Assembly: GCA_029856145.1 (NCBI GenBank)
Contig: JAHQWK010000001.1
Span: 465,731 to 529,730 of the forward strand
Source of the DNA: Promethearchaeia archaeon
GTDB lineage: Archaea; Asgardarchaeota; Lokiarchaeia; Sigyniarchaeales; SOKP01
DNA: 64,000 nucleotides
Reading direction: 5' to 3'
Shown: piece after piece, positions 2,580 through 55,120 of the stretch
Layout of the letters: each line of letters opens with the position of its first letter
How positions within the stretch are numbered: position 1 is the stretch's first letter
The notes under the pieces: generated by a model
Database searches by the model: none
What the model was told of the DNA's origin: nothing
The model's input: the letters and a program-made list of their open reading frames with translations, nothing else
Translations under genes and position numbers: made by a program

Positions 2580-5500
2580 ATGGTTAAAATCGCCGCTTCA
2601 TTAAGAAATTTCCGTGATCGTATTAAAACATCGATATCGTTGAAAACACGGAACGTTTTATTCTTTTTGGCAATATTCTTAGTTGTATTTCTAGCCATCG
2701 TTATTAGATTAAGCCCCCTTATAAGAGATATTACTTTAATTAAAGGATTTGACCCTTGGATCCAGTGGTATAACGCTGAATATTTAGATACTCATACGCT
2801 ATATGAATATTTCAATTGGAGAGACTTTAAAAGCTGGTATCCAGAGGGATATTTTAGAGGTGGTTTACGACCAGGACTAACATTTACTGTAGTCGTTATT
2901 CATAAGATTTTAAACTTTTTTGGATTACCAATTTCGTTATATGATATATGTTTCTACTTTCCTGCATTTATGGGAGGTATAACTGTATTAACAATTTATT
3001 TTTTAGGTAAAGAAATACTTAATAAGTCAACTGGCTTATTTGCAGCATTTTTCTTAGCTTTTAATCCAGGATACTTACAACGAACCACAGCAGGATTTTT
3101 TGATAATGAAACAATTGGTGTTTTTGCTACCTTAATGATATTCTTGTTTTTTTTAAAAGCTATAAGAACAGGAAAATTTTCACATTCGGTTATTGGTGGT
3201 ATCTTTTTAGGTTATTTATCCTTAAGTTGGGGGGGATATCAATTTGTTTATTTAGTAATTCCTATAATTGCCATTATCTTAATTTTCTCAAATAAATATA
3301 ATGAAAATGTTTTGATGTCTTATGCGGGAGTTCAAGGAACTGGTCTATTGATTTTTTCTTTGTATTCAAAATTTAACCACCAAAATTTATTCTCAAATTT
3401 AGATATAGGAGGTATTTTTTTCTTTACGATCATTTTAGTTTTTTTTCATCTTATTCACACCAAAAAGAATGAGCATCCCAATTTCTATTATCGATTAGTA
3501 AATACAATAAAATGGGGGCTTATACCTGTTATTCTTGTACTTGCCGTAATAATTTGGGTTGCTCCTGCAATTTTACCTTTTGGATTTGGCTCACGATTTT
3601 GGACAATTCTTAATCCTCTGTTCCGTGAAGGAGTAAGTCTTGTTGCTTCAGTAGCAGAGCAAATGCCTAGTGCGTGGAGTGTATTTTATTATAACACATT
3701 AATTCCGTTGGTTCTTATACCATTAGGCATATATTTCTGCTTTAAAAGATTAAATGCAGCAGATATTTTTGTAATTGCATTTATTATATTAATGTATTAT
3801 TTTACGGGAAGTATGATTCGTATAATTTTAATTTTTGCGCCAGCAGCAGCATTGGCGGGAGCATATGGCTTAGCTAGTATATTAAAAATTTTTGGCAGTT
3901 TCGTTGGAGAAAGAAAAGTTGGTGTAAGCAGGAAAAGGAGAAGACAATTAAAAGGAACTTTAGGAAGCTCTGAAGTGTTAGTTGTCTATCTTCTGGTGGG
4001 GGTTTTGTTGTATGCTCAAGTTTCTCATACTACTTTTATAGCAGTCAACCAAATGTCATATGTTCAAATTGTTCCTGGAGGTATTCTTCACGATTGGGAA
4101 GAATCTTTAACATGGATGAGAGATAATTTGAAAGGAACAGATGTAGTGGTTTCATGGTGGGATTATGGTTATTGGCTTACTCCTATAGGTAATGTGACCA
4201 CTGTGAACGATAATGCTACGAAGAATCAAACTAGAATTGGTTTGACAGGAATGGCGTTAATGCAAAATGATGAACTTTATAGCGTTAAAGCATTACGTCG
4301 GCTGGGTGCCGATTATGTATTAGTTTACTGGGGCTTTCTATTAACAGGATTGGGCGGGGACGAGGGCAAGTGGACGTGGATGGTACAGATCTGTAATGAT
4401 AATTATGAAAGATATAAAAAATTAGGATGGGAAGAAGATAATTGGGCAGAAAATGCGGTCTTTGATATGGGCAATTATGTAAATGAAAGCACAGGAGCAG
4501 TGGAAGATGGGTGGTTTGAAAGTCAATTAATTAAGCTTTTGTTTATGGCTGAACCTACCTCCTCTGATGATGTTCAGAACGATCTTCAACGAAATTATTA
4601 CGATGCAATAACTAATCGACGAGATGATGATGGTGATCCATGGATATCTCATATCCCTGATGGAGGGTTTTATGATTCTAAGATATTTATTCCCTCATAT
4701 TTTTCTCTAGCCCATTTAGTAAAGCTGTATAAGGTTGATTATACAATATTAGATTCCCATTTTGCTATTCGAAGCCCAAGAGTTACAGATAGTGGATATG
4801 CTACATTTAAACTAAAAAATACAGGTACAAAAGAATTACTCATTACGCAAGTAGAAATTAATGGATCAAAATTTGATTTTTTCATGGCAGATGATCAAAT
4901 TGAAGAGGGTTCTGAACAATTAGTTTGGGTTAACACAACAAGTGCAAATTTTCAACTAGACGATGTAGTTACAATAAACGTGACTGCTCAATCAGAAGCA
5001 GAATTCCAGAGAAAGTATATTTTTTCCAATGCAACAAGTAATTTCTTCGTTAGAGAAGCACAAGATGGAGAAATTAAAATTGTTAAGGAAAATAGTATAG
5101 TTATTCAAAAAGATTCTTCTACTGTTGATTTATACCTTGAAGTGGAAAATACAGGGGACTCAATTGTTGTTTTAGATAGGTTTTATGTTAATAATGATAT
5201 AATGGAAAATAGGATTGACCAAGAGAAAATCACTTATTCAAGTGGTTCCTCGGTCCTTGAACCCATGGATAAAGCTTCTATTCTGATACAAGATGCTGAT
5301 ATAAGTTTCTTCCCTATCAAAGAATATAATAAGATCGGGGTAGCGACTCCAAACAATATATATGACGAAATATTGTTCACATCAAATGTAGAAAACTATT
5401 CGCTTTCAATTTTGGGTGAGGATCGGATTGCATCTCCTGAAGAATTGGCCATCTTTGACACAAATTTTAGGAAACACATTCCAATTGATTTTAATAATTC

Positions 5501-6458
5501 TTTTGCACATTCATATGATAATGGGACCATCATCTTAAATATAAGGATAAAGAACACAGGAGACATCATATTTGGGTTGGATCAAGTTTATTTGACAGAA
5601 TCTCTAATCGAAGCTGATTTTGATATAAAACCAAAAAATGAAACTTTAAACCCAAAAAGCAATGAGGAACGTTTAATAATAATAGAAATAGACACGGAGG
5701 ATCCCGCTGACGCAAAATATGGACTTACTGGAGATATTAATGAAGAAATATTGGTGTGCATAACTGGAGGTTTTGCAGAATTAGAAACTGTTGCATCGGA
5801 TATTGGATATATACATACTATTAAAAATGAACCAGATATTAAAATAATAAAAGAGGTTCAGGGCGTTGCGTCATCTATTATTCATGCAAATGAAACAGGA
5901 GAACTCTTAATTAAGAATACGGGAAATGAACTAGTAACTCTTGACAATATTTATGTTAATAATACCTTAGTAACTAATACTGAATATACTTATGGTGATT
6001 CTTCATTAGAGATGCAAGAATGTGCGATTGTTACATTTGATATTCCTGGGTTAAAGATAAATAAGTCAGATGAATGCTTTATAAATGTTACAACAACTTC
6101 CTTAGTAGAGGCAAATGAAACTCTCAATGCTTTTGTAGATTCTGGTTATTACAATATTGAAATCGATGATGTTGGAACCTCAGCAATTGATTCAGGAATA
6201 GTAACAATTTTGATAAATAATAATGGATTGTTAAATGTTACACTTGATTCAGTTTACATAAATAATACCTACTTTTCTATAAATGCCTTCACTTCTGATA
6301 ATGGTTATGAAATTGGAGCAGGTGATTCATTAGAATTAACAATAGATATGGCTACAATCGAATCAAAATTTGGAATTATTAATGTTGATGATATTTTAGA
6401 GATTTTGGTCCGCACTTTAGAAGGAGCCGAGGATATTCACGAAGAAATTGTAAAATAA
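2580..6458 (+). CDS. aglB: Oligosaccharyltransferase AglB/STT3 with a ~565-aa C-terminal repeat extension
   Basis: Polytopic N-terminal half. GFFDNETIG matches the eukaryotic STT3 SYDNE box. WWDYGYW lies at 4155..4175. NDNATKNQTRIGLTG and GGDEGKWTWMVQI form a DK-type motif similar to eukaryotic DDINKFLWMVRI. Confidence 0.9.
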   Translation: MVKIAASLRNFRDRIKTSISLKTRNVLFFLAIFLVVFLAIVIRLSPLIRDITLIKGFDPWIQWYNAEYLDTHTLYEYFNWRDFKSWYPEGYFRGGLRPGLTFTVVVIHKILNFFGLPISLYDICFYFPAFMGGITVLTIYFLGKEILNKSTGLFAAFFLAFNPGYLQRTTAGFFDNETIGVFATLMIFLFFLKAIRTGKFSHSVIGGIFLGYLSLSWGGYQFVYLVIPIIAIILIFSNKYNENVLMSYAGVQGTGLLIFSLYSKFNHQNLFSNLDIGGIFFFTIILVFFHLIHTKKNEHPNFYYRLVNTIKWGLIPVILVLAVIIWVAPAILPFGFGSRFWTILNPLFREGVSLVASVAEQMPSAWSVFYYNTLIPLVLIPLGIYFCFKRLNAADIFVIAFIILMYYFTGSMIRIILIFAPAAALAGAYGLASILKIFGSFVGERKVGVSRKRRRQLKGTLGSSEVLVVYLLVGVLLYAQVSHTTFIAVNQMSYVQIVPGGILHDWEESLTWMRDNLKGTDVVVSWWDYGYWLTPIGNVTTVNDNATKNQTRIGLTGMALMQNDELYSVKALRRLGADYVLVYWGFLLTGLGGDEGKWTWMVQICNDNYERYKKLGWEEDNWAENAVFDMGNYVNESTGAVEDGWFESQLIKLLFMAEPTSSDDVQNDLQRNYYDAITNRRDDDGDPWISHIPDGGFYDSKIFIPSYFSLAHLVKLYKVDYTILDSHFAIRSPRVTDSGYATFKLKNTGTKELLITQVEINGSKFDFFMADDQIEEGSEQLVWVNTTSANFQLDDVVTINVTAQSEAEFQRKYIFSNATSNFFVREAQDGEIKIVKENSIVIQKDSSTVDLYLEVENTGDSIVVLDRFYVNNDIMENRIDQEKITYSSGSSVLEPMDKASILIQDADISFFPIKEYNKIGVATPNNIYDEILFTSNVENYSLSILGEDRIASPEELAIFDTNFRKHIPIDFNNSFAHSYDNGTIILNIRIKNTGDIIFGLDQVYLTESLIEADFDIKPKNETLNPKSNEERLIIIEIDTEDPADAKYGLTGDINEEILVCITGGFAELETVASDIGYIHTIKNEPDIKIIKEVQGVASSIIHANETGELLIKNTGNELVTLDNIYVNNTLVTNTEYTYGDSSLEMQECAIVTFDIPGLKINKSDECFINVTTTSLVEANETLNAFVDSGYYNIEIDDVGTSAIDSGIVTILINNNGLLNVTLDSVYINNTYFSINAFTSDNGYEIGAGDSLELTIDMATIESKFGIINVDDILEILVRTLEGAEDIHEEIVK
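4761..6455 (+). repeat. Five divergent tandem protein-domain repeats (~105-130 aa each) inside the aglB 3' region
   Basis: Recurring motif h-x-h-x-N-[TN]-G-x(4-5)-h-x-L-[DT]-x-h-Y-h-N: FKLKNTGTKELLITQVEING (~4806), LEVENTGDSIVVLDRFYVNN (~5140), IRIKNTGDIIFGLDQVYLTE (~5545), LLIKNTGNELVTLDNIYVNN (~5905), ILINNNGLLNVTLDSVYINN (~6210). Confidence 0.7.
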
Positions 6459-18973: not shown

Positions 18974-19546
18974 TTAAGAGAAACTTGAGATTTTAGCAAT
19001 CATATATAGTTTTTTGACAAGTGTTTTAAATGCATCAGTTACTCCTTGGCCGGTCAAAGCACTCGTTTTATAATATCCAATAAATCTATTAGCTTTAACA
19101 AATTGTTCAACATTTGCATCAGAAGTTGTCACATTTGGATTTGATGCTAAATCTCCATCGTCAACTAAATCCACTTTATTTCCAAATAGAATTATTGGAA
19201 TATTCCCACAATGCTTTTTTAGATCATCAAGCCATCTGCTAACATGAGTGTAACTTTCAATTTGTTCTGGAGCGTGAGAAAAGACAATTATCGCTCCACT
19301 ACTTCCTATATAAAATCTTTGACGTAATGCCTGAAATGAATCTTGACCTGCAATATCCCAAAGAAACAATCCCACATTCTCCCCCTCAATTACTTCTTCA
19401 TATTTAGAGAATTGTGTTCCCAAGGTTGATATATACTCCTTCTGAAAGGATCCTTGAGTATATTTTTTAATTAAAGATGTTTTCCCTACAGCTCCGTCCC
19501 CGATTATGACAACCTTGAATCCATATCCTTTTTCATCGTCACTCAT
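18974..19546 (-). CDS. Rab/Ras-like small GTPase (Asgard-type), tandem paralog 1
   Basis: G1 GDGAVGKTS, switch I YISTLG, G3 WDIAGQ, G4 GNKVDL, G5 TSALTG. No C-terminal Cys. The start is set at ATG 19546 (MSDDEKGYGFK), which matches the paralog start MSDKAFGFK. The track ORF extends to 19573. Confidence 0.9.
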   Translation of the reverse strand: MSDDEKGYGFKVVIIGDGAVGKTSLIKKYTQGSFQKEYISTLGTQFSKYEEVIEGENVGLFLWDIAGQDSFQALRQRFYIGSSGAIIVFSHAPEQIESYTHVSRWLDDLKKHCGNIPIILFGNKVDLVDDGDLASNPNVTTSDANVEQFVKANRFIGYYKTSALTGQGVTDAFKTLVKKLYMIAKISSFS

Positions 19547-19763
19547 TTTATTTATCCATCCTTCTAAGTACAATATCCCTTTTTTAAATAGTAATAATCA
19601 GATGTTTTAAATTTTTACAATACAATAATTAAAAGTAATTTTAAAGAATTATACTGATGTTTAGAATTAAAAGAATTATATTATCTCTATATTTTAAAAT
19701 TGAATGAAGTCTAGTTTTGATTAATAGACAGATTAGATTATTATAAGAAGTAATTATTGATTT

Positions 19764-20318
19764 TTATAGTGTAGCTCGATGATATAATTTCCTCACCAAT
19801 GTTTGAAAAGCTTCTATAACACCTTGACCTGTTAGGGCACTTGTTCTGAAATATTCACTAATATTGTGATCTTGGGCAAATTTCTTAACATGAACATCTG
19901 AAGTTTCATAATTTGGGCTAGTAGCTAACGCATCCTGATCAACTAAATCAGCTTTATTTCCAAATAATACTATTGGTATATTCCCGCACGCTTCCTTTAT
20001 ATTTGATAACCACTTATCAATATGACGATAAGTTTCGATTTCTTCAGGAGCAAGAGAAAAAACAATAATAGCACCACTACTTCCCTTATAAAATCTATCG
20101 CGTAAGGTATTAAATGATTCTTGACCCGCTAAATCCCATAAAAATAATTCAACCATTATTCCACTTAAAGTCTCTTTATATCTCGAAAATTGCATACCTA
20201 AAGTCGAAATATAATCTTTTTCAAACGTGTTTGTTGTATATCTTTTAATTAGCGAAGTTTTCCCTACAGCACTATCCCCAACTATGGTTATCTTAAAGCC
20301 AAACGCTTTATCACTCAT
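19764..20318 (-). CDS. Rab/Ras-like small GTPase (Asgard-type), tandem paralog 2
   Basis: G1 GDSAVGKTS, YISTLG, G3 WDLAGQ, G4 GNKADL, G5 TSALTG. Roughly 60% identical by eye to the neighbour at 18974..19546. No C-terminal Cys. Confidence 0.9.
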   Translation of the reverse strand: MSDKAFGFKITIVGDSAVGKTSLIKRYTTNTFEKDYISTLGMQFSRYKETLSGIMVELFLWDLAGQESFNTLRDRFYKGSSGAIIVFSLAPEEIETYRHIDKWLSNIKEACGNIPIVLFGNKADLVDQDALATSPNYETSDVHVKKFAQDHNISEYFRTSALTGQGVIEAFQTLVRKLYHRATL

Positions 20319-27438: not shown

Positions 27439-28983
27439 TTAAGCGTTTTCCTCTAAGAATTGAACAAATTGTATTTGTTCCTCAACATCCATATATTTTA
27501 ATTCTTCAACAATTTTATCATAATGTTTAGGTTTAACATTAGGAAGTTTACGAATTCTATTAATCAGCCTTTTAGGTATTTCTTTATATAGACTAACCAT
27601 TGCTTCGATATATTTTACTTGCTCTTCTTTTGTTAAGAATGCAAGTTCTTCCAATAATTCTTTCTTTTCCTTTTTAGAAATTTTTAGACCTATTATTTGC
27701 TTCCTTAAATCTTTTGACAATACAGCAAATATCTTTGATAAATATTCTTTAACTAATTTTTTATCTTTTTCATCTTTTACAGGTAAGAGAGAGTCATGTA
27801 ATTTTAATCTAAATTCTTCTTCCCTTTTTGCTTTTTCCTCATTATCTATTTTTAAAGGTATCTCTTCAAGTTCTTTTATTGGTACTTCTTTAATTTTTTT
27901 TTGTTCAATTTTAATTTCTTCTTTTACAGGAGCTACTTTTTGTGGGCGGTCTAATTTTTCAGATGGCGTAAGTGGCGTAGGGGGGATAGGCGAAGTAGGA
28001 GCATATATTACTGGTTTTTCAATTTCAGATACTTGTTGGGCTTTTTCTGATGGTTTACCGAAAGATAAGAAAATTACTAAGATTCCTTTTAGTAGTATAA
28101 AGATACCTGCAGCATAAAACATAGTTCCTAAAATCCCTAGGATAATAAACTTAACTGCATCTTTTGATACAAATTTTTGTTTTTCCTTGATTCTTTTTTT
28201 CATTCCACTATCTATGAGCAAAATTATTAATGCAGTGATTAGAAGAACAACCCAAATTAGTATTCCTAAAGGGATTTGGATACCAAAAGGTAAATTTATT
28301 AGCGTATTACCCCCGTCTGGGAGATAAATCCCATCTGAAAATGCTCTGTAAATACCATATAATATTAATATAAATCCTGCTTTATTAGAGAAATAATTCA
28401 ATGAATTCTTTGCGAGCAAACCGTAATCATAGATTTTAAAATCCTTATTTTTGGAGTTTGTAAACACATATATTATGATAAAAACCCCTTTAATAAGAAT
28501 AATTACACCTAAACCATACATAATACAACCTAATATTCCCCAACAGAAAGAATCTAGAAAAATTTCATTATATTTTTTCTCCTTTACTTTTTGAGTAATA
28601 TAAGTTCTATCATATATTAGCAGAAATAAACAAATTATAATATTTGCAATATTATCTAAAAGGTTAGCAAGACTATAGTATGGGAATAGATTAAAAAAAA
28701 TTGATATTACTAAATAAAAGAAAAAAATAAACAATGGTAAAGAAGATATTTTATTTAGAAATTGAATAAACTTGTCTAAACTAGATGATTTTATTTCAGG
28801 GAAGGTATGATATGGTTTTTTTGCCCTAATATATGGAGTTGGAGCGGGCTTGAATGTAACCCCTTCCAAAATAAAAGGAGAACCACATCTTTCACAATAA
28901 ACTTGAATATTACTTTCTATTAAGTGAGAGAGTTCCTGGGGGAATACATATTCGCACTCCCGGCAGACAAAAATTTTACTCAT
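27439..28983 (-). CDS. Polytopic membrane protein with an N-terminal Cys4 zinc ribbon and a C-terminal Pro-rich linker plus coiled-coil domain
   Basis: CRECEYVF...(x)...CERCGSPF at the N-terminus. About 8 hydrophobic helices with an internal duplication (YGLGVIILIKGVFIIIYVF / YAAGIFILLKGILVIFLSF). PTSPIPPTPLTPSE linker and K/E-rich tail. Confidence 0.7.
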   Translation of the reverse strand: MSKIFVCRECEYVFPQELSHLIESNIQVYCERCGSPFILEGVTFKPAPTPYIRAKKPYHTFPEIKSSSLDKFIQFLNKISSLPLFIFFFYLVISIFFNLFPYYSLANLLDNIANIIICLFLLIYDRTYITQKVKEKKYNEIFLDSFCWGILGCIMYGLGVIILIKGVFIIIYVFTNSKNKDFKIYDYGLLAKNSLNYFSNKAGFILILYGIYRAFSDGIYLPDGGNTLINLPFGIQIPLGILIWVVLLITALIILLIDSGMKKRIKEKQKFVSKDAVKFIILGILGTMFYAAGIFILLKGILVIFLSFGKPSEKAQQVSEIEKPVIYAPTSPIPPTPLTPSEKLDRPQKVAPVKEEIKIEQKKIKEVPIKELEEIPLKIDNEEKAKREEEFRLKLHDSLLPVKDEKDKKLVKEYLSKIFAVLSKDLRKQIIGLKISKKEKKELLEELAFLTKEEQVKYIEAMVSLYKEIPKRLINRIRKLPNVKPKHYDKIVEELKYMDVEEQIQFVQFLEENA

Positions 28984-30180: not shown

Positions 30181-31239
30181 TTAAGGCTCTCTCTCGACAG
30201 AAAACTTATCCATTTCTTCTTTCAATAATCTCATTTCCTTCTTGTGACCAAAATAGACAAGTAATCCGAAAATAGTGAAGTAAATTGTTAAAATTATCAT
30301 TGTATAAAAATAATACTTATAGGTATAACTCATAAAATGTAAAGCTAAACCAATAATGAATCCAGTGAATAATCTAGATTCAGTAGAGCTTTTTCTTAAT
30401 AAAAGTCTTTGCGTTCCCCAATCAGTTAATCCCGGTATTGGAAGGATTATGCAAAGAAGTAAGGCAATTTCCGGACTAAAATCAATTTGATAGATTTTAG
30501 ATATTAAGTACGTAGTAAAAAGAGCTATTAATCCCCCAAGTATTACTCCTGAACATCTTGAGCAAAAATAGATTTTGGTTCTTCCAAATTTAAGATAAAA
30601 TGTATGATCGCTCGCAGAGAGAGGATGATGAGTTAAGAACATATAATATAATTGTTTTTCTTCTTTTGCAAGCACTTTATCATATAGAAATAATAGTATT
30701 GGAACAATAAATAAAACTGAGATAAGTACTGCGAGTAAGAATTTGATGCCATAATTAATAAAAATAATATCAAGTGTAAATTGGCCAGGATAAAAGACAA
30801 TTTGAAAAGAAATTATGAGACTAAAAATAATGAAAGAAGTAATAATTAATGCTATGAAGGTATAAAGCACATTAATTCGTTTATGATATTTTAAAGGCTG
30901 GTATTTATAGATACCAACCAAGAATCCATAAATTGCTATAATAAAACACCATTCAATATAAATCGTTCCATAAAATGCTAACTGAAAGATAAATTCCCCC
31001 AAAAAACCAGTGATTAAACCATTTATAGGGCCTGCGAGAACAGATAGAAATGTAAAAAGCAAAAGTGTTATTCCAAACTGAATTGAAAGCTCTTGATTAT
31101 TTATAAAAATGGTAGAGATTGAGCCAAAAGGTTCAGAAATATATACATATGATATTGTAATGAACGCAATAATGAATATATTTAAAAATATACGTCTTAA
31201 AATATCATATTGCTCTTCATTATGAGCAGATTCAGTCAC
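30181..31239 (-). CDS. Polytopic membrane protein; the C-terminal half is DUF2085-like (CxxC membrane domain)
   Basis: About 9 TM helices. YFCSRCSGVILGG and a later TDWGTQ resemble the DUF2085 pattern. The N-terminal half (GPINGLITGFLGE) resembles ECF-transporter S components. Family names are from memory. Confidence 0.55.
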   Translation of the reverse strand: MTESAHNEEQYDILRRIFLNIFIIAFITISYVYISEPFGSISTIFINNQELSIQFGITLLLFTFLSVLAGPINGLITGFLGEFIFQLAFYGTIYIEWCFIIAIYGFLVGIYKYQPLKYHKRINVLYTFIALIITSFIIFSLIISFQIVFYPGQFTLDIIFINYGIKFLLAVLISVLFIVPILLFLYDKVLAKEEKQLYYMFLTHHPLSASDHTFYLKFGRTKIYFCSRCSGVILGGLIALFTTYLISKIYQIDFSPEIALLLCIILPIPGLTDWGTQRLLLRKSSTESRLFTGFIIGLALHFMSYTYKYYFYTMIILTIYFTIFGLLVYFGHKKEMRLLKEEMDKFSVEREP

Positions 31240-31294: not shown

Positions 31295-31954
31295 TTAATT
31301 AAAAATCGTATCAAGTTCTTCGATTAAGTTCTCTTTCGTCATTTCAAAACCCATACGTAGTACTTTTAAAATTATGTTTTTTCCGAAAGGAACTTTTAAA
31401 ATTGAATCATCTTGTTCTACAATAGAAATTCCTTCGTCATTATAATCAAGTTGACGCTTTAATGCTTGATATGCTTTTTCTTTTATTTTAAATGTCGCTC
31501 TGGATAATTCATTGTAATTCTTAACATCATCTTTAACATTAAAAAAAAGGATAGCTTCTTCTAATTGTGTAATGAAGCACTTTTTAGTAACTTCTTTTAA
31601 CTTTTTATAGTTACGGTGAGTGTCTTTACACTGGATGAATGTCTGGTCGTTTTTTAGATAAATAGGAAAGTTATTATTAACAACTCTTTCAAATTTTTCT
31701 TTTGAAATATCTCCATTTTGTATTAATTGTTTAGCGGAATCAAGTGTAACTCGAATTTGCTCTAGTGTACCTACTTTTGCTTCTTTATCACTCCAGTATT
31801 TATAAAATGATTTGATTATAGGTTTAACAACAAAATTTAGAGTACCCACATCTAATTCAGAATCTATAAGGTCTCGTCCGTAGTTAAGACTGGTCTCCAT
31901 TTGGTCAACCATTCTTTTCTCTAAGATCTGGTAATTTCGGTCTAAGTAGTCCAT
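31295..31954 (-). CDS. Hypothetical soluble protein, tandem paralog A (unknown family)
   Basis: 219 aa, about 50% identical by eye to the adjacent 220-aa ORF. Shared blocks: MDYL.RNY.I...RM..QM..SL..GR.LID.ELD.G.LNF.VKPI.K.FY.YW, FPIYL.NDQT..QC...H.NY..LK. Confidence 0.7.
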   Translation of the reverse strand: MDYLDRNYQILEKRMVDQMETSLNYGRDLIDSELDVGTLNFVVKPIIKSFYKYWSDKEAKVGTLEQIRVTLDSAKQLIQNGDISKEKFERVVNNNFPIYLKNDQTFIQCKDTHRNYKKLKEVTKKCFITQLEEAILFFNVKDDVKNYNELSRATFKIKEKAYQALKRQLDYNDEGISIVEQDDSILKVPFGKNIILKVLRMGFEMTKENLIEELDTIFN

Positions 31955-32064: not shown

Positions 32065-32727
32065 CTATTTATTATCGTATGTTTCATTGAGTGATGTAAT
32101 AAACTCTTTTTTAGTTAACTTAAAGCCTTGTCTAAGCGCTCTAACTATTATTTTTCTCCCAATTGGGATTTTAAGCATTGATGAGTCTTCTTCAACTATT
32201 TTAATACCCATATCTGTAAATTCTAATTGTTTCCTTAAATTTTGCTCAGCTATATCTTTTGAAGGAAATGCTATTAAACATAAGTCTCCATAATCATTCA
32301 CTTCATCCTTTACCTCTAAAAATCTTACAACTTCTCTTAAATAATTTCTAAATGTTTCTTTTGCTACCTGCTTTAATCTTTCATAATTTTTATGTGATTT
32401 CGAGCATTGGGAATCCGTTTGATCATTTGCCAAATAGATAGGAAAATTCTCCTCTATAATTTTATTAAAACTCTCTTGAGTTTTCCCATTTAGTAATAAT
32501 TGTTTACCAGAATCCAATGTAATTTTAATTTGTTTTAAAGTACCAGATCTTGCCTCGCTTTTTGCCCAATAATCATAGAAAGTTTTGACGATTGGTTTGA
32601 CAATGAAGTTTAATAAACCTGTATCTAATTCAGTATCGATTAATTTTCTTCCTAATTCTAAAGATTTTTGCATTTGCTCAATCATTCGTTCCTTTATAAT
32701 CAAGTAATTTCTCTCTAAGTAATCCAA
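32065..32727 (-). CDS. Hypothetical soluble protein, tandem paralog B (unknown family)
   Basis: See paralog A. Conservation between the two copies supports real coding sequence. Confidence 0.7.
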   Translation of the reverse strand: MDYLERNYLIIKERMIEQMQKSLELGRKLIDTELDTGLLNFIVKPIVKTFYDYWAKSEARSGTLKQIKITLDSGKQLLLNGKTQESFNKIIEENFPIYLANDQTDSQCSKSHKNYERLKQVAKETFRNYLREVVRFLEVKDEVNDYGDLCLIAFPSKDIAEQNLRKQLEFTDMGIKIVEEDSSMLKIPIGRKIIVRALRQGFKLTKKEFITSLNETYDNK

Positions 32728-32919: not shown

Positions 32920-35900
32920 ATGTCAATTTTTTATTTTCGAACTTTGTTGCTTGGTTCAGACCCTGATACTATTCATTTTTATATATCAAGAGCTTTTGGT
33001 GAACCTGGCGAAGATAAGGAGACTTATGTCTCATGGTATAAAGAATTAAACGTCTTAGATAATAAATGTGATTTAGAAATTGATGCTCTTACAAGTTTTT
33101 CTGCTAATTTAGATGAAATAATTCCAACGGTAGATGGAATTGTTTATTTTTTAAATCCTACAATTCAGGAAGAGTCAGAACTTTTTGAAATGATACTTCC
33201 GGATATTTTTTCCGTAAAACGGGATATCCCTACGATTATTATGTTTTATGATCAAAATGGAATTCTTCCTATCTCTATTAATGATTTATTAACACATATA
33301 TGGGTTAATTTTCCTAGCCTTGAAGCATTTGTGAATCTTCCTCCTAACGATTTTCATCAAACTCTCCAATCTTTATGCTTAGCTATGATTAATGGAGATA
33401 CGCCATTAAATATAGAAAATGCATGGATGCGATTTCCAATATTTATACAAATGGCAAATATCTATTTTAATAACAAAAATTACTTTTATGCCGCTCAAGC
33501 TATCAGAAAAGCAGCTCAAATTGCAGAGATCTATAATAAAGAAGAATTTTTTATAATCAGTGAACAAGCAGCATACCTTTTTTCCAAAATGAATTTATAT
33601 TTAGAAGCAAGTAAAATTTTAGAAAAAGTAGATAAACGGAAATCAAGAAATTTCAAGAAGTTATATGCTGAAGCTATAGTAAGAGAGGGCAATCATTTTT
33701 TCAAAAGGAATGAATATGAAAAAGCAGCTAGAAGCTATGAAAGAGCAGCTCAATGGTCAAGTATAGAATTATTAGATAAAAAACTTATTAATGAAGCATT
33801 TAGATTAGCTATAAATTCGTGGATTTCTGCATGTAGTGTTGAGGATGCTTTTAGAATTTTTCTAAGTTTACCTCATAAAGAGGTTATCACCATTTTAAAA
33901 GAAATTTCGGATAAAATTTGTGCTGCAGCTGATTATTTGGCAAGTATTAATAATTTTGAATTAGCAAGAGAACAGCTATATAGCGCAGTTAACAGATATC
34001 AATTGGAGGATCTTTTTGATGAATTAAAAAACTTGACTACCAAACTTTCCGAAGTTCTAATTGAACTTTTTAAGCATCAAGTAAAAGAACAAAAAAAACA
34101 TGCTGCTAGAAATACTTATGATGAGATTGAAAACATGTGGATCTCTTATAAGGTAAAAAAAGTAGATTTAAATTTGACTCTAGAAGAGTTGATTAATCAA
34201 TTTTTTGAAGTTAATAATTTTGGAATGGCTACAATATTAATAGATAAATTAAGTTCAAGAAAATCCAAACAACAATTAGCAAAAGTTAGAGATGAGCTCG
34301 AAGATAAATATAGAGCTTTGAAAAAGAAAGAAGTAGAAGACAATATCAATAAAGGAGTTCAAGTTATAAGAGATTTTGGCGAAGTTGAACGAGAAATACT
34401 TATAGAGATGAATTCTCAAAAAATAACTGAAGTAAATGAATTTATTAAACATAATAGTTATTTAACAGCAGCAAATCTGCTGAAAAAACAAGCAGAATAT
34501 CTTAAAAGTATTGGAAAAGATGAAATAAGGGATCAAATTCTAACAAAATCTTTAGACATCTTGTTAGATGGTTTAGAATTTGAAAATTTCTTCATAACTT
34601 GTAATACACTCTCAGGTGAAATGAAAACCAAATATTTAACTAGAATTTTTCCAAAATATATTCAAAAATTAAATGAACTTAAGGATTCTGAGGATTATCT
34701 AAGAAAAGAAAGAATTTTTGAGAATTCAATCAGAATTTACCGAGATCAAATGCTTTATGACCATTCAAAAGAAATAAGCTTACTTTTCATAAAACTTGTT
34801 AAAACTGAAGCCTTAAGGATATTGGAGAGCGAAGATAATCTCTCTGCTGTCAATAAAGCTGAAGTTTTAATCAAAAAAGCTCTAAATATAACTTCAGCAT
34901 ATCTGGAAAAAGAGGAAAATATTAAAATTACTTTTAACAAAATCTATAAAAAAATTACTGAAATTTATATTGAATTAGATAACTTGCATTTAGCACACGT
35001 TTATAATGATAAAATTGAAAAACCAACTTACAAAATAGAACTCAATAAGAAAATAGAGAAACTTGAAGCTAAGAAAAGTGAAATTAGATCTAAAAAAGCT
35101 AAGGAAACACGTAAAGGAGAAGAATTAAAGGAAAAAGATTCAATTATCGAAAAAAGAGCGCAAGAAGCGAGATTAGATAAAGAAAATGATATGAAAGAAC
35201 GAAAAGGATTAATAAGAGGATATTTCAAAGATGGTTTGAGTTATTTAAAATCCCAACAGTATGATGAAGCGCTTGAGATCTACAAAAATACAATGAATCG
35301 ATTAAATTTGACTAAAAAATATAAATTAGCAGGAGTTTCTTTAGCCATAGCAAGTTTAATACTTATGAAACAAAATAAATTTGAACAAGCGAGGAATTTA
35401 TTAAATGAGACAAAAAAGAAATTATCTGGTTTAGCTAAATTATTTTCTGAAACATTTGCGGTTACATTGATCGAATATGTTATTGATTTGAAGAGTTTTC
35501 AAGATGAAGAAAAATTGAAAGAATCACTGCACTTTTTTGAAATACTCCCATTATTTGAAGAGGAATTATTTTTATTATATGATCTAATAGGCGAAGAATA
35601 TCAAAAGGAAGAAAAGCGTGAAAAAACTATTGAGACGTTCGCAAAACAAAAAGAAATTGAAAGGATTGTTAAAAAGCTAGCAGGATCTATTGAAAAAAAA
35701 ACACATCACATAAAACAACGAGAGGCAATCAAAAGCCAATATTGGAGACTTATATTAGATGATATCTTTAATGGAAAAATGATAAATGCATCAATAGGTT
35801 ATTTTGACATAATACCAAAACTAATCAAAGAAGGTTATATTAAACTAGCTGCAGTTAGTTTGATCTTAGGTTCGATAATCCTTATTAATGAAAAAACAGT

Positions 35901-36648
35901 TAAAATTTCTGAAGAAACATTCCAGAAACATGTAGATGAAAATAAATCTGATTTAAAGCCTCTTCCAGAAATCGAGATTATGAAGTATTTTTTCCCTGCA
36001 ATAAGAAATGATGAAAAATCGGTTATTAAACTAATCATTGATTCATTTATCGAGAAATTGGTTTTGTTCGAACCTGAAATTCAGATATTAAGAAATATTG
36101 CTGGAGAAGAAATTTCGGAAGAAGAAGAAATTGAAGAAATGTCAAGAAAAGAATATGGAAAATTATCAAAAATACGAATAGATTTTGAGCAAAGATATGG
36201 CAAACTACATTCTAAACAAGGAGATGCTAGAAGAGATAAAGAAAATTCATTAAAGAAAAGAAAACCAATGAGAAAGAGGTATTATTTATTGATATTAGAG
36301 TTGTTGGAAACAAAAAAATTTAAGGAGGGTGCAGAAAAATACTTAGAATTAGCATATAGTTTCTCTAAAAGGAAAGATCTCGAGAGTAGTTCATTAATGG
36401 TGATTTTTTATGGATTAGCTCTTTTAAAGGCAGAAGAACCCTTAAAATCAATTAAAAAGAATATTAATATTTATTTAAATAGCTTAGGAGTTAACAAAAA
36501 ATTGGTCGAAGAAACATTTTATATTATGCTAATTATGTTTCTGATTGATGTAAAACTATATAATTTTGACAAATTTTTGCCTAAAATTAAAGAAATATTG
36601 GAGATACTGCCTATGTTCGAAGAAGAGAAGGTTTTAATTGAAGAATAA
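32920..36648 (+). CDS. Large (1,242 aa) protein: N-terminal degenerate small-GTPase-like domain plus TPR/alpha-solenoid with a central K/E coiled coil
   Basis: Residues 1 to ~160 align by eye, with matching spacing, to the window's Rab-like GTPases, but the motifs are lost: G1 GSDPDTIH (32953..32976), G3 DALTS (33082..33096), G4 YDQN (33247..33258). Many TPR-like hairpins follow, for example YAEAIVREGNHFFKRNEYEKAARSYERAAQ and GYFKDGLSYLKSQQYDEALEIYKNTM. Confidence 0.65.
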   Translation: MSIFYFRTLLLGSDPDTIHFYISRAFGEPGEDKETYVSWYKELNVLDNKCDLEIDALTSFSANLDEIIPTVDGIVYFLNPTIQEESELFEMILPDIFSVKRDIPTIIMFYDQNGILPISINDLLTHIWVNFPSLEAFVNLPPNDFHQTLQSLCLAMINGDTPLNIENAWMRFPIFIQMANIYFNNKNYFYAAQAIRKAAQIAEIYNKEEFFIISEQAAYLFSKMNLYLEASKILEKVDKRKSRNFKKLYAEAIVREGNHFFKRNEYEKAARSYERAAQWSSIELLDKKLINEAFRLAINSWISACSVEDAFRIFLSLPHKEVITILKEISDKICAAADYLASINNFELAREQLYSAVNRYQLEDLFDELKNLTTKLSEVLIELFKHQVKEQKKHAARNTYDEIENMWISYKVKKVDLNLTLEELINQFFEVNNFGMATILIDKLSSRKSKQQLAKVRDELEDKYRALKKKEVEDNINKGVQVIRDFGEVEREILIEMNSQKITEVNEFIKHNSYLTAANLLKKQAEYLKSIGKDEIRDQILTKSLDILLDGLEFENFFITCNTLSGEMKTKYLTRIFPKYIQKLNELKDSEDYLRKERIFENSIRIYRDQMLYDHSKEISLLFIKLVKTEALRILESEDNLSAVNKAEVLIKKALNITSAYLEKEENIKITFNKIYKKITEIYIELDNLHLAHVYNDKIEKPTYKIELNKKIEKLEAKKSEIRSKKAKETRKGEELKEKDSIIEKRAQEARLDKENDMKERKGLIRGYFKDGLSYLKSQQYDEALEIYKNTMNRLNLTKKYKLAGVSLAIASLILMKQNKFEQARNLLNETKKKLSGLAKLFSETFAVTLIEYVIDLKSFQDEEKLKESLHFFEILPLFEEELFLLYDLIGEEYQKEEKREKTIETFAKQKEIERIVKKLAGSIEKKTHHIKQREAIKSQYWRLILDDIFNGKMINASIGYFDIIPKLIKEGYIKLAAVSLILGSIILINEKTVKISEETFQKHVDENKSDLKPLPEIEIMKYFFPAIRNDEKSVIKLIIDSFIEKLVLFEPEIQILRNIAGEEISEEEEIEEMSRKEYGKLSKIRIDFEQRYGKLHSKQGDARRDKENSLKKRKPMRKRYYLLILELLETKKFKEGAEKYLELAYSFSKRKDLESSSLMVIFYGLALLKAEEPLKSIKKNINIYLNSLGVNKKLVEETFYIMLIMFLIDVKLYNFDKFLPKIKEILEILPMFEEEKVLIEE

Positions 36649-37781: not shown

Positions 37782-39020
37782 ATGTCTACTGAAGTCTCTA
37801 GCTTGATAAAAGTCATCTCTAAATTTTTAGACCCGAAATCTGCTAAAGTTAGTAAATTAAAAGAAATTGATGACATTTTAAAATTACATATTGATTCTTA
37901 TAAATTTATTGATAAAGAAGAATTCACAATCATTAAGCAATTATTGGACATCACGACCATTGGAGATGCCTCAAAGTTAAATAAAGATGACCCGTTTGGG
38001 AGTCTTATTGAAATTGAAGAAACGGATGATTCTATAGAATTAGCAATAGACTTGCAGAAAAAAATTGAGGAATTAAAAGAAAAATACCCTTTTCTTGAAA
38101 CTAAATTAAAGAAAACAGGCACAATTAGTTCACTTATTGCGAGTATTAAAGAGGAAAAAGAAGGAATAGAGATTAAAGGTCAAAAAGTTCTTGTATGTGG
38201 TTTAGACGCAGCTGGGAAAACATCATTGTTATCCAAATTTGGAGGACGTTTAGGAATAAGTGATATGATCGCAACACATCCAACAAAAGGAGTGGTACGA
38301 ATGAAATTTGGCACTAGCAATTTGAATCTATTTATATGGGATTTGGGTGGTCAAGAGGAATATAGAGAAAGATATTTAAATAATCCAGAGCAATATTTTG
38401 TCCAATTGGATTTATTAATGTTTGTAATTGATGTACAGGATCCTGATAGATTTGAAGAATCTCTTCAATATTTTGATAAGATAATAGATTCAATAATCTT
38501 GTTAGAGGAAACTCCCTATATATTAATATTCATTCATAAGTATGATCCTGATCTGAAAAATGACCCAAAAATACTCTTAAATGTTGAACTTTTAAAGGAT
38601 AACTTAAATGAACTTTTAAAAAGTAAAACGAGCGAATTTGAGCTTGAGATCTATTTAACATCAATATATTCTCTTATTTCTCGTGAACCTCAGTTTGCTA
38701 AATATATAAAGAATTTGATGAGTGCAAGTTCTTCTCTAACTGATCCGACAGTACGAAAAGTGGAGGGTCTTGGAAAGACTTTAGAAGAAACTTTGAATGC
38801 TGTAATTCGTTTATCAGAAAGTATTTCTATGCAACTCAGCGATCTTGATAATCGACTTCGAGCAATAGAGTCAGGAGCGTTTCAAGTTGCTCAAAGTGGT
38901 ATTCCAATTGAAATTGCTAATCCCAATCAGCCAACCGCAAGGCGTCAAGAAAATGTACGTTTAAATGTCCTTAATGAGTTAAAAGATTTATTTAGCAAGA
39001 GGAAAAGTCTAGACCTTTAA
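37782..39020 (+). CDS. Arf/Sar/Arl-type small GTPase with a 134-aa N-terminal and a ~105-aa C-terminal coiled-coil extension
   Basis: G1 GLDAAGKTS (38199..38225; the eukaryotic Arf consensus is GLDAAGKTT). G3 WDLGGQ (38337..38354; Arf is WDVGGQ). G4 is HKYD (38535..38546) instead of NKxD. Confidence 0.85.
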   Translation: MSTEVSSLIKVISKFLDPKSAKVSKLKEIDDILKLHIDSYKFIDKEEFTIIKQLLDITTIGDASKLNKDDPFGSLIEIEETDDSIELAIDLQKKIEELKEKYPFLETKLKKTGTISSLIASIKEEKEGIEIKGQKVLVCGLDAAGKTSLLSKFGGRLGISDMIATHPTKGVVRMKFGTSNLNLFIWDLGGQEEYRERYLNNPEQYFVQLDLLMFVIDVQDPDRFEESLQYFDKIIDSIILLEETPYILIFIHKYDPDLKNDPKILLNVELLKDNLNELLKSKTSEFELEIYLTSIYSLISREPQFAKYIKNLMSASSSLTDPTVRKVEGLGKTLEETLNAVIRLSESISMQLSDLDNRLRAIESGAFQVAQSGIPIEIANPNQPTARRQENVRLNVLNELKDLFSKRKSLDL

Positions 39021-47525: not shown

Positions 47526-47948
47526 TTAATACATTTTAATAATTTTTTGAATTATTCCCTCTAATTTGCTTAAAATATAAGAAACTTTAGATTCCCTATT
47601 AATAATTAATATTAAAAATGTATTATTATCACATTCAAAAATTAGTATTGTTTTATCTTCTAATTCTGCAATGACTTTAATAATTTCTTGATTACCTATT
47701 GCTTCTCCAATTCCTACGGCGCTTTCCAAAACGGAAGCACACATAGATACAAATTCTTTACTTTTAAAATCATTTCCTAAATTTTCTATTATAAGACCTC
47801 CGTCTCTATATGCAAAAATAGCCCCATCTAAGTTTCCCTTATTTTTTAGTTCATTAAGGAGTAGAGACAACTCACCGAAATGCTGCAAATTAGAATGATT
47901 CATACTATTCATTAAATAAGATACTTCAGTTTCTATAAATATGGACAA
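47526..47948 (-). CDS. Roadblock/LC7 (MglB-like) domain protein
   Basis: NLDGAIFAYRDGGLIIEN...FVSMCASVLESAVGIGEAIG...VIAELEDKTILIFEC fits the Roadblock/LC7 alpha-beta-alpha pattern. Internal Met codons at positions 13 and 16 may be the real start. Confidence 0.72.
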   Translation of the reverse strand: MSIFIETEVSYLMNSMNHSNLQHFGELSLLLNELKNKGNLDGAIFAYRDGGLIIENLGNDFKSKEFVSMCASVLESAVGIGEAIGNQEIIKVIAELEDKTILIFECDNNTFLILIINRESKVSYILSKLEGIIQKIIKMY

Positions 47949-50552: not shown

Positions 50553-50812
50553 AGCTTATATTGATTAAATTTTTTGTTTTTTAAAATATTTCTTCTAATA
50601 AATTGTAAAAAATATTTTAAATTTGAGATTATTAGGTATCTAAAACCAATTATTTTTAATAATCTAATCCATTATATTTATAAAAAAATTTATATCAACT
50701 AAGTCAAATAAAAGGTTACTTACTAGTGTTTTTAATTAAATTTTGCTAGTATAAATAGGCTAATAAAAACTGAATGATTAAATTAACTAAATAGAAGGAG
50801 AGGGTGAAGGAA

Positions 50813-51346
50813 ATGGTTGATGCGATGTTTAAAATCGTGTTTTTTGGAGACGGAGGGGTTGGAAAAACAACTCTAATTAACCGTTTTCTCACGGGTGTTT
50901 TCAGAAGCGATTCGCAAATTACGATAGGGGTTGACTTTCACGTAAAAAAAGTTGATATTAATGGAAATAGAGTTAGTTTACAAATCTGGGATTTTGCTGG
51001 TGAAGATAGGTTTAGATTTCTTATGCCTAGTTATGTTGTTGGGGCCTCTGGAGGAATCTTTATGTTTGACATAACAAGATATACTAGTCTTAAAAATTTT
51101 GACGACTGGATTGAAATATTTAAAAAAGGTTATAAAGGGGATAATCATCAAATGCCCGTTCTTATGGTAGGCAGTAAACTAGATCTTGAGTATAAAAGAG
51201 CAGTATCTAGAGATGAAGCATTTGAGTTGGCAAAAAAGAATAATCTTTTTGGTTACCTTGAATGTTCTGCTAAAAGTGGTGAAAATGTAGAAGATATCTT
51301 CCAAGAAATAAGTCGATTGATGATGATTAAAGCAGGACTCTTATAA
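50813..51346 (+). CDS. Rab-like small GTPase with atypical G3 (DFAGE) and G4 (SKLD)
   Basis: G1 GDGGVGKTT, Rab-type switch I ITIGVDF, G3 WDFAGE (E at 51002..51004 replaces the catalytic Gln), G4 GSKLDL (S at 51173..51175 replaces Asn), G5 CSAKSG. An SD-like GGAGAGGG precedes the ATG at 50813. The track ORF opens at GTG 50804. Confidence 0.88.
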   Translation: MVDAMFKIVFFGDGGVGKTTLINRFLTGVFRSDSQITIGVDFHVKKVDINGNRVSLQIWDFAGEDRFRFLMPSYVVGASGGIFMFDITRYTSLKNFDDWIEIFKKGYKGDNHQMPVLMVGSKLDLEYKRAVSRDEAFELAKKNNLFGYLECSAKSGENVEDIFQEISRLMMIKAGLL

Positions 51347-54742: not shown

Positions 54743-55120
54743 ATGACTTCCATGGAACCAACTACAGACTCGCTCGATGACATTTTGAAGAAATTGTTAG
54801 CAGCAATCCCAGAAGTGAAAGCCGCCGCAATTGTATCTGCTGAAGGTCTACCAATCGCTTCTGCACTTCCACAAGGAGTTGATGAAACAAGGATTGCCGC
54901 GATGACTGCTGCATTACTCTCCTTAGCCGAAAGGTCAGTTATCGAGATGGAGAAGGGTGAGTTCGATCAATTATATGTTAAGGGAAGCGACGGTTATCTC
55001 TTAGTCTTACAAGCTGGTCCCAATGCGGTATTAACAGTTTCTACAACGAAGGATGTAAGATTGGGATTAATATTTTTAGATTGTAAGAGAACGTGTGAAA
55101 AAATCGCGAAATTAATTTAA
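54743..55120 (+). CDS. Roadblock/LC7 (MglB-like) domain protein
   Basis: ILKKLLAAIPEVKAAAIVSAEGLPIAS....RIAAMTAALLSLAERSV....LYVKGSDGYLLVLQAGPNAVLTVSTTKDVRLGLI is a textbook Roadblock/LC7 pattern. 125 aa. Confidence 0.85.
   Translation: MTSMEPTTDSLDDILKKLLAAIPEVKAAAIVSAEGLPIASALPQGVDETRIAAMTAALLSLAERSVIEMEKGEFDQLYVKGSDGYLLVLQAGPNAVLTVSTTKDVRLGLIFLDCKRTCEKIAKLI

Follow-up and report, generated by a model that had tools for sequence, protein, structure and literature searches.

The window analyzed here, a stretch of 64,000 nucleotides from a Promethearchaeia archaeon (contig JAHQWK010000001.1; G+C content about 30% throughout), contains at 32920..36648 (+) an open reading frame (ORF) that raises a simple question: what does a domain with the predicted fold of a small GTPase and none of its nucleotide-binding motifs do at the head of a protein of 1,242 amino acids (aa)? 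The ORF is complete, running from an ATG start, backed by homologs that share the same N-terminal position, through 1,242 codons to a stop, and its coordinates and length agree with those given in an earlier note on this DNA, made from the sequence alone. The N-terminal head (aa 1–160; 32920..33399, +) is predicted to be a pseudoGTPase of the class-i type, that is, a GTPase fold with neither nucleotide binding nor switching. With moderate confidence, we consider the protein as a whole to be a nucleotide-independent scaffold that combines this dead G domain with a superhelix of tetratricopeptide repeats (TPR) and three helical modules.

Predicted fold and former nucleotide site of the head

The main evidence for the nature of the head is a predicted fold, with which the sequence signal appears consistent as support. 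The AlphaFold2 (AF2) model of aa 1–178, built on a 16-sequence alignment, has a mean predicted local distance difference test score (pLDDT) of 78.6 and a predicted template modeling score (pTM) of 0.80. It shows small-GTPase topology, i.e., a six-stranded mixed sheet with an antiparallel β2 and five helices; the predicted elements are β1 (aa 3–12), α1 (15–26), β2 (36–45), β3 (48–57), α2 (64–70), β4 (73–78), α3 (83–97), β5 (105–109), α4 (120–130), β6 (134–138), and α5 (142–158), and the AF2 model of the full-length protein reproduces their order. A Foldseek search of the head model against PDB yields 1,444 matches at E ≤ 1e-3, the best 50 of which are, without exception, Ras, Rap, Ral, or Rheb chains, all small GTPases (E 1.6e-8 to 1e-7, probability 1.00, template modeling (TM) score 0.60–0.74, identity 11–18%). 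Hence, the check by structure prediction and Foldseek that the earlier note had proposed returned a small-GTPase fold. The β2–β3 antiparallel hairpin is a hallmark of TRAFAC GTPases and is not found in CheY or flavodoxin, whose five-stranded sheets are entirely parallel. Given this hairpin, the six strands, and Foldseek matches that are all small GTPases, we rejected the CheY, flavodoxin, and TIR folds, any of which would, according to the same note, have overturned its reading; none of them occurs among the top 50 matches.

Plain sequence searches are silent about this fold. At E ≤ 1, Pfam gives no Ras, Arf, Roc, or Gtr1_RagA match either for the whole protein or for aa 1–170, while the same scan scores a genuine GTPase of the window (37782..39020) at 1.9e-21; with either the whole protein or the head as query, Pfam, NCBIfam, and PADLOC return TPR models only. 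Searches of PDB sequences with phmmer and hmmsearch (head, head alignment, full-length alignment) yield nothing meaningful: there is one marginal profile match of the head, AraR/PBP-like, at E 0.5, and ribosomal protein S20 matches a charged linker of the protein at E 0.014.

Profile–profile comparison by hhalign depends on depth and template. The shallow 16-sequence head alignment gives no significant match to the GTPases of the window, in global or local mode. An alignment of about 140 family sequences, including 26%-identical members, compared with the three Rab-like GTPases of the window together with H-Ras, gives a probability of 82% and P 1.1e-5 over 141 columns. The register is as expected for a G domain: strands β1, β3, β4, and β5 coincide with the corresponding GTPase strands, and exactly over the "xVGKT" of the P-loop lies a gap of five residues. 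By template, P is 8.6e-4 for H-Ras alone, 5.7e-3 for the Rab-like proteins alone, 0.036 for the Rag/Arf-like GTPase, and 0.42 for EngB, while five unrelated α/β proteins of the window, used as controls, give P 0.08–0.35. Since the signal varies with the template, we take it as supporting evidence only.

The spacing of landmarks agrees with this register. From the Gly ending β1 to the G3 Asp there are 48 residues in the Rab-like GTPase 19764..20318 and 43 in the head; from the G3 Asp to the β4 Gly, 20 and 18; from the β4 Gly to the start of G4, 39 and 37. The first difference, five residues, equals the P-loop deletion, and the other spacings are close, so the register that the earlier note had drawn by eye against the Rab-like GTPases of the window is right; helix 1, which was drawn there without the 5-residue gap, has to be shifted. 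The "Rab-like" part of that description does not hold: the GTPase fold is supported by AF2 and Foldseek, whereas the data go no further than the Ras superfamily, so that the head is best described as a predicted Ras-superfamily fold with no assignable subfamily of origin (Rab, Ras, Arf, or Rag).

All four nucleotide-binding motifs are degenerate. The AF2 model, the motif scan, and the hhalign gap reduce the P-loop (G1) to a remnant, G12-S-D-P (32953..32964, +), where the β1–α1 loop consists of two residues (S13-D14) and lacks the Lys and the Ser or Thr of the GxxxxGK[ST] present in real GTPases. For the remaining sites, the alignments and the motif scan agree. In β3 and the former G3 site (aa 50–59, CDLEIDALTS; 33067..33096, +), C50, L52, and E53 do not vary, D55 is at least 90% conserved, and the glycine of DxxG is missing. 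In β5 and the former G4 site (aa 104–117, PTIIMFYDQNGILP; 33229..33270, +), other residues have taken the place of NKxD; P104 and P117 do not vary, and G114, without variation among the 16 sequences of the head alignment, is at least 90% conserved in the 70-sequence alignment. In β6 and the former G5 site (aa 133–142, SLEAFVNLPP; 33316..33345, +), SAK is replaced, and E135 and N139 are invariant. The positions of G3, G4, and G5 now read D55-A-L-T, Y110-D-Q-N, and V138-N-L, respectively. The ranges for which the earlier note had claimed loss or replacement translate accordingly: 32953..32976 is aa 12–19, GSDPDTIH; 33082..33096 is aa 55–59, DALTS; and 33247..33258 is aa 110–113, YDQN.

The loss is a property of the family. 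Among 145 members of at least 1,000 aa, none has Walker A ([AG]xxxxGK[ST]), none has GK[ST] within the first 45 aa, and none has [NT][KQ]xD or S[AC][KL] where these would be expected; DxxG occurs in five of the 145, by chance, at non-homologous positions. This bears out the loss of the P-loop GK[ST] and the replacement of G3 and G4 claimed earlier for the single sequence. The P-loop is also absent from the most divergent representatives, down to 26% identity. As no detectable member keeps the G motifs, the loss predates the divergence of the detectable family. Of the ortholog search by which the earlier note had hoped to find an ancestral P-loop, one half succeeded: orthologs were found, and a P-loop-keeping member was not among them.

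Compared with the Asgard Rab-like GTPases, the head shares the predicted fold and the order of elements, a spacing within two residues apart from the P-loop, and a weak profile–profile similarity in the correct register. In contrast to them, it lacks G1, G3, G4, and G5, is part of a larger protein rather than a stand-alone domain, and has no Ras, Arf, or Roc match in Pfam. The head, hence, falls outside the functional Ras superfamily: it has the predicted fold, and neither the motifs nor the Pfam match.

Junction, solenoid, and C-terminal modules

The head and the junction that follows it are the best-conserved parts of the protein. The head–solenoid junction (aa 159–180, GDTPLNIENAWMRFPIFIQMAN; 33394..33459, +) was delimited by column entropy and AF2 pLDDT; its aa 161–180 (TPLNIENAWMRFPIFIQMAN) form the most conserved 20-residue block, with a mean column entropy of 0.26 bits as compared to 0.7–2.3 elsewhere. 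This block is disordered in the model of the isolated head (pLDDT 35–44) and ordered in the full-length model (76–83), where aa 168–184 form the first solenoid helix. In the head itself, the invariant or nearly invariant residues include W39, C50, L52, E53, D55, D72, G73, N79, P80, P104, D111, G114, P117, W128, E135, N139, and F145. The conserved polar residues among them (E53, D55, D72, N79, D111, E135, N139) are mostly located at strand ends, several at or just after the C-terminal ends of β3, β4, β5, and β6. In real GTPases, the C-terminal strand ends form the side of the nucleotide pocket. This position of the conserved polar residues suggests that the former nucleotide face probably has a new binding role, with either the junction (in cis) or a partner as its ligand.

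After aa 168, the full-length AF2 model (aa 1–1200, 70-sequence alignment) is all helical. Its mean pLDDT is 82 and its pTM 0.41, which makes the local structure credible and the global shape not. The TPR-like α-solenoid, seen by both Pfam and AF2, occupies aa 168–700 (33421..35019, +) and comprises about 25 helices, among them one of 64 residues (aa 447–510). Pfam TPR_2 matches aa 250–278 with 32 bits (cut-off 27), and TPR_12 and TPR_7 match aa 772–830 below the threshold. With TPR_2 above the gathering score and a solenoid of helical hairpins, the protein qualifies as a TPR-repeat protein, and the TPR/α-solenoid part of about 1,050 aa attached to the head in the earlier description stands.

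Foldseek searches with the full model retrieve CTR9, SKI3, IFT-A subunits, Naa15, APC/C subunits, LGN, and Tom70 at E 6e-7 to 5e-4, with TM scores of 0.06–0.25 and identities of 8–15%. Scores in this range correspond to generic repeat similarity, and the likeness to coat, tether, and IFT components that had been suggested for the design of this protein does not extend beyond it (TM ≤ 0.25). The eukaryotic TPR scaffolds (CTR9 of Paf1C, SKI3/TTC37, IFT-A, Naa15, APC/C, LGN/Pins) do share with it a long helical-hairpin solenoid, a likeness of generic repeats and not of orthology; however, none of them has an N-terminal G-domain-like head or three modules ending in LPLFEEE.

The C-terminal part consists of three modules, each preceded by a stretch in which 51–56% of residues are charged (aa 700–770, 895–935, and 1062–1120); near these linkers are the segments with pLDDT below 50 (aa 720–730, 896–905, and 1063–1074). 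Linker 1 (aa 700–770, K/E-rich; 35017..35229, +), defined by AF2 and composition, contains 56% Lys, Arg, Glu, and Asp and 27% hydrophobic residues, and is modeled as helices at aa 702–719 and 727–763 with low confidence at 720–730. Because hydrophobic residues make up just 27%, its composition seems closer to a charged single helix than to a classical coiled coil. The Lys/Glu-rich stretch noticed earlier at aa 700–770 exists; rather than as a coiled coil that splits the solenoid, it is better read as the first of three charged linkers.

The modules themselves, R1 (aa 746–897; 35155..35610, +; hhalign and sub-threshold Pfam TPR), R2 (aa 919–1068; 35674..36123, +; hhalign), and R3 (aa 1095–1242, ending in ILPMFEEEKVLIEE; 36202..36645, +; hhalign), are homologous to each other, with hhalign probabilities of 97.5–99.2% and E 7.5e-12 to 1e-19 (R1 vs. 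R2: 98.4%, E 6e-15; R1 vs. R3: 99.2%, E 1e-19). Each contains a basic RKxxxRxYF/YW helix, followed by TPR-like hairpins, a helix of small residues (LAGVSLAIASLIL in R1), and a terminal motif of the LPLFEEE type.

Family and genomic neighborhood

A search of 5.8 billion proteins yields 257 relatives of the 1,242-aa protein; among the 120 of them that are listed, identity ranges from 46 to 100%, and the only names are "hypothetical" and "TPR repeat protein". The earlier note would have given up its reading if homologs outside this genome had been absent along with transcript and peptide evidence; there are hundreds of homologs. Nearly all come from metagenome-assembled genomes (MAGs) of Lokiarchaeota (Promethearchaeota in NCBI), and the cluster names contain MAGs only, with no ortholog from a cultured strain; the family member of Lokiarchaeum is Lokiarch_03720. 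When each GTDB species is represented by one genome, 105 species are seen to hold a relative. Our locus comparisons cover 80 loci out of these 105 species; all 80 are from Lokiarchaeal MAGs, each with a single matching place. The family falls into two length classes, about 1,240 aa and about 1,085 aa, both with the N-terminal domain. We considered a headless shorter class and found this to be wrong, as its missing part is an internal C-terminal segment (query aa ~914–1067), i.e., module R2.

A profile of the head alone, run against 1.84 billion representative proteins, gives 49 matches, nearly all of them family members, full-length or fragments; one weak match of 397 aa (E 1.2e-4) was excluded as non-family. 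The most distant matches include a full-length homolog 26% identical to the window protein and a marginal partial relative from Sigynarchaeota. In the same search, there is no match from eukaryotes, bacteria, or other archaea, and no live GTPase, other architecture, or P-loop-bearing member; hence, the ancestral state is not recoverable by profile search. Most likely, the gene is a vertically inherited, apparently single-copy scaffold specific to Lokiarchaeota.

The gene order around it is: DUF2085 membrane protein (−), pA219 (−), pB220 (−), target (+), TFB (−), Rag/Arf-like GTPase (+), PAP2 (−). With divergent and convergent flanking genes, the target is probably monocistronic. About 20 kb around it (window ~22000–45000) are collinear in nearly all 80 loci; protein identities within this block range from ~40% (p514) to 85–99% (TFB), and the target, at 43–83%, is among its faster-evolving genes.

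Divergently upstream of the target lies pB220 (220 aa; 32065..32727, −), of an uncharacterized family, with its tandem paralog pA219 (219 aa; 31295..31954, −). This pA/pB family is Lokiarchaeota-specific and has 527 homologs; each of the 120 listed is named "hypothetical" and comes from an Asgard MAG, and neither pA219 nor pB220 has a match in Pfam, NCBIfam, PDB, or PADLOC. Next comes the membrane protein (30181..31239, −), which has an ECF-S-like N-terminal part and DUF2085 and whose position is kept in deep lineages.

These deep lineages comprise three Lokiarchaeal ones (L081, L083, and L084), to which we added one Sigynarchaeota locus; in the former the target has diverged much further, with 26% identity to the window protein in L081, the one deep lineage measured. 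Neither TFB nor the Rag/Arf-like GTPase is found downstream of the target in any of these four loci. All three Lokiarchaeal lineages have the DUF2085 protein (L081 4635–5942, L083 4866–5903, L084 2944–4128) beside a single pA/pB homolog (34–41% identical, E 1e-39 to 1e-60) within 2–4 kb upstream; the Sigynarchaeota locus contains none of the target's neighbors. The loss of the downstream genes and retention of the upstream ones in deep lineages single out pA/pB and DUF2085, rather than the GTPase, as the conserved link; we treat it as a lead, not as proof. The conservation of this neighborhood, which the earlier note had wished to see checked, is accordingly split: a homolog of the tandem paralogs persists in the three deep Lokiarchaeal lineages, and the Arf-like GTPase does not persist beyond the collinear clade.

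Immediately upstream of the target, between it and the DUF2085–pA/pB pair, the deep Lokiarchaeal lineages carry an HVO_0163_N-like helix-turn-helix (HTH) protein and a protein of ~140 aa (L081 6744–7883, L083 6635–7777, L084 6681–7800), with transcription divergent from that of the target. The latter protein has a conserved "TG[VL]C...C.WEG" motif and no homolog in the window.

As the earlier note had said, the window is rich in GTPase and Roadblock genes: there are three Rab-like GTPases (18974..19573, −; 19764..20318, −; 50804..51346, +), each of which retains G1 and G3 intact, as well as a single Rag/Arf-like GTPase and two Roadblock/LC7 genes (47526–47948, −; 54743–55120, +; Pfam E 3e-5 and 6e-20, respectively). 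The two tandem Rab-like GTPases (18974..19573 and 19764..20318) also have NKxD. In the Rag/Arf-like GTPase (412 aa; 37782..39020, +), the G domain (aa 132–297) matches Gtr1_RagA and Arf at E 1.9e-21 and 4.3e-20; this protein has an intact P-loop, HKYD as G4, an N-terminal extension of ~130 aa, and a helical C-terminal tail with weak matches resembling MCP signaling domains, and is present in three tandem copies in one locus (L061).

This setting suggests an alternative in which the head is just as dead and serves differently: its partner would be a live GTPase, such as the Rag/Arf-like neighbor, or else a Roadblock/longin regulator, and it would serve either as a decoy or as the constitutive half of a heterodimer, the solenoid being the effector platform. 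Besides the GTPase and Roadblock genes of the window listed above, this alternative has in its favor the Rag/Arf-like gene, located two genes downstream of the target in 65 of the 80 loci, and the precedent of eukaryotic pseudoGTPases that serve as interaction modules. However, the adjacency lies within an all-collinear block, neither the Sigynarchaeota locus nor any of the three deep Lokiarchaeal loci retains it, and the target and the GTPase do not form an operon, the convergent TFB gene being located between them. Moreover, Asgard genomes carry very many GTPase and Roadblock genes (10.1101/2020.10.19.343400), so some are expected nearby in any case, which also counts against this alternative. 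Nothing was found in support of a role in the local GTPase/Roadblock network, as had been proposed earlier, and we regard it as unlikely.

Two further genes of the window are of note in their own right. Protein p514 (514 aa; 27439–28983, −), conserved in 65 of the 80 loci, has an N-terminal CxxC pair resembling a zinc ribbon, several hydrophobic segments, and a C-terminal half rich in K and E; it has no match in Pfam or NCBIfam. The gene at 2580–6458 (+) encodes a 1,292-aa oligosaccharyltransferase of the STT3/AglB type (Pfam STT3, E 1.5e-46) that is extended considerably at its C-terminal end.

A proposed nucleotide-independent scaffold and its alternatives

The mechanism we propose for the 1,242-aa protein is as follows. 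A G domain of the Ras-superfamily type would have lost its nucleotide site by deletion of about five P-loop residues and replacement of DxxG, NKxD, and SAK, and would have become a fixed protein-docking surface. The nearly invariant junction at aa 159–180 would couple this head rigidly to the TPR superhelix of about 530 residues, and the three tandem modules of ~150 residues, set on charged helices, would extend the number or reach of binding sites. The solenoid and the modules might then offer many peptide- or protein-binding grooves, making the whole protein a nucleotide-independent assembly platform. The best candidates for partners would be the divergent upstream 220-aa proteins and the adjacent DUF2085 membrane protein, the latter placing the platform at the membrane. 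This choice of partners (pA/pB and DUF2085, and with them the membrane) is the weakest step, and we hold it to be doubtful.

The docking role has precedents. Class-i pseudoGTPases retain the GTPase fold and do not bind nucleotide, a term applied to AAGAB, whose pseudoGTPase domain binds the AP1 and AP2 sigma subunits (PMC12490416); dead G domains also act as binding modules in CENP-M, dynein LIC, and p190RhoGAP (PMC12490416, PMC5593906). The AAGAB psGD, CENP-M, pG1 and pG2 of p190RhoGAP, and the Ras-like domain of dynein LIC share with the head a G-domain fold, degenerate motifs, and a predicted inability to bind nucleotide, and AAGAB also shares a β1–α1 loop incompatible with nucleotide binding. 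They are constitutive protein-binding modules within a larger assembly factor or scaffold, and by analogy the head may be one as well. In contrast to these domains, the head is archaeal, has no detectable sequence relationship to any of them, and is fused to about 1,050–1,080 aa of TPR and helical repeats, a fusion seen in none of them.

Several points weigh against the scaffold interpretation. The absence of nucleotide binding is predicted from motif logic, and the docking role, the partners, and the localization likewise stand at one remove from what was computed, i.e., the fold, the motif loss, the repeat anatomy, the distribution, and the synteny. The sequence-level link of the head to GTPases appears weak and template-dependent (P 1e-5 to 6e-3), and Pfam and PDB sequence searches of the head give no GTPase match. 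The predicted packing of the head against the solenoid and the conserved "face" are deduced from secondary-structure position, and the global arrangement in the full-length model is unreliable at a pTM of 0.41. As for the partners, blanket synteny over 20 kb makes adjacency weak evidence of partnership, the Sigynarchaeota member shares none of the neighbors, and the target appears to be monocistronic, so that there is no operon to point to them.

The head might still bind GTP, ATP, or a phosphorylated ligand in a non-canonical pocket, which would make the protein a switchable scaffold and the head an atypical GTPase or a pseudoGTPase of class ii or iii. The conserved D55, N79, D111, E135, and N139 at the strand ends of the nucleotide face would fit such a pocket, as would the Ser or Thr common at position 35 in the α1–β2 loop and the strong purifying selection on the head. 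However, the β1–α1 loop spans just two residues and lacks the Lys and the Ser or Thr of the P-loop, hhalign places a 5-residue deletion at that site, and GK[ST], NKxD, and SAK occur in no family member. Nucleotide binding in the absence of the phosphate-binding loop is not known for any P-loop NTPase, and this counts against a ligand-binding head, which we consider very unlikely.

Another possibility is that the head is an unrelated Rossmann-like α/β domain (flavodoxin, CheY, TIR, or PBP-like) and resembles Ras by accident. The failure of plain sequence searches to find a GTPase would then be expected, as would the non-significant hhalign result with 16 sequences, and the sole PDB profile match, albeit marginal (E 0.5), is AraR/PBP-like. 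Against this stand the 50 small GTPases among the top 50 Foldseek matches, all at probability 1.00, the six strands and the antiparallel β2–β3 hairpin of the model, and the deep hhalign comparison, which gives the GTPase register through β5 at P 1.1e-5, as compared to P ≥ 0.08 in the controls. We think it highly improbable that the head is such a domain.

Finally, a degenerate signaling or defense NTPase of the STAND (NB-ARC/NACHT-TPR) or Roco type, suggested superficially by the same order of an NTPase-like domain followed by TPR, has next to no probability and is effectively refuted by the Pfam, Foldseek, and PADLOC results: the head is Ras-like, 160 aa long, and without Walker motifs, unlike the AAA+-like STAND module with Walker A/B and ARC; it runs directly into TPR helices with no COR, unlike Roc in Roco proteins; there is no NB-ARC, NACHT, Roc, or COR match in Pfam at E ≤ 1 and no PADLOC match of the 1,242-aa protein; and the gene has no defense context, belonging to the syntenic core, with a single matching place per locus in all 80 loci, rather than to an island.

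The nucleotide-independent scaffold, which we retain, would be a novel combination. Among the papers covered, literature searches gave none linking Asgard archaea with pseudoGTPases and none mentioning Lokiarch_03720, and among papers on Asgard GTPases and TPR there was no description of the family; the earlier note, likewise, knew of no described archaeal family with such an architecture; nor is the family described in the main text of the asCOG/ESP analysis, the Arf survey, or the structure-based ESP prediction. The combination of domains is novel and the archaeal pseudoGTPase apparently new, while the components and the likely logic are familiar.

Most documented cases of pseudoGTPases that serve as fixed interaction modules are eukaryotic (CENP-M, dynein LIC, p190RhoGAP, AAGAB). 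The bearing of this protein on eukaryogenesis is limited, as the family does not extend beyond Lokiarchaeota except for one marginal relative in Sigynarchaeota, and profile and homolog searches detected no homolog in eukaryotes. If the scaffold interpretation is true, Asgard archaea have not only expanded live small GTPases but also put a G domain to new use as a structural component of a giant scaffold, a design otherwise associated with eukaryotic cell-biology machines. Going further, one may picture a membrane-associated assembly, similar to coats, tethers, or IFT, that arose independently in Lokiarchaeota from a G-domain docking head on a TPR platform of more than 1,000 residues, together with the 220-aa and DUF2085 proteins. 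We rate this as a long shot; if true, it would be the first archaeal pseudoGTPase machine and a natural example of a "GTPase plus solenoid" pair hard-wired in one polypeptide. Since the family is conserved, apparently single-copy, and large, identification of its partners could reveal a Lokiarchaeal complex not seen so far.

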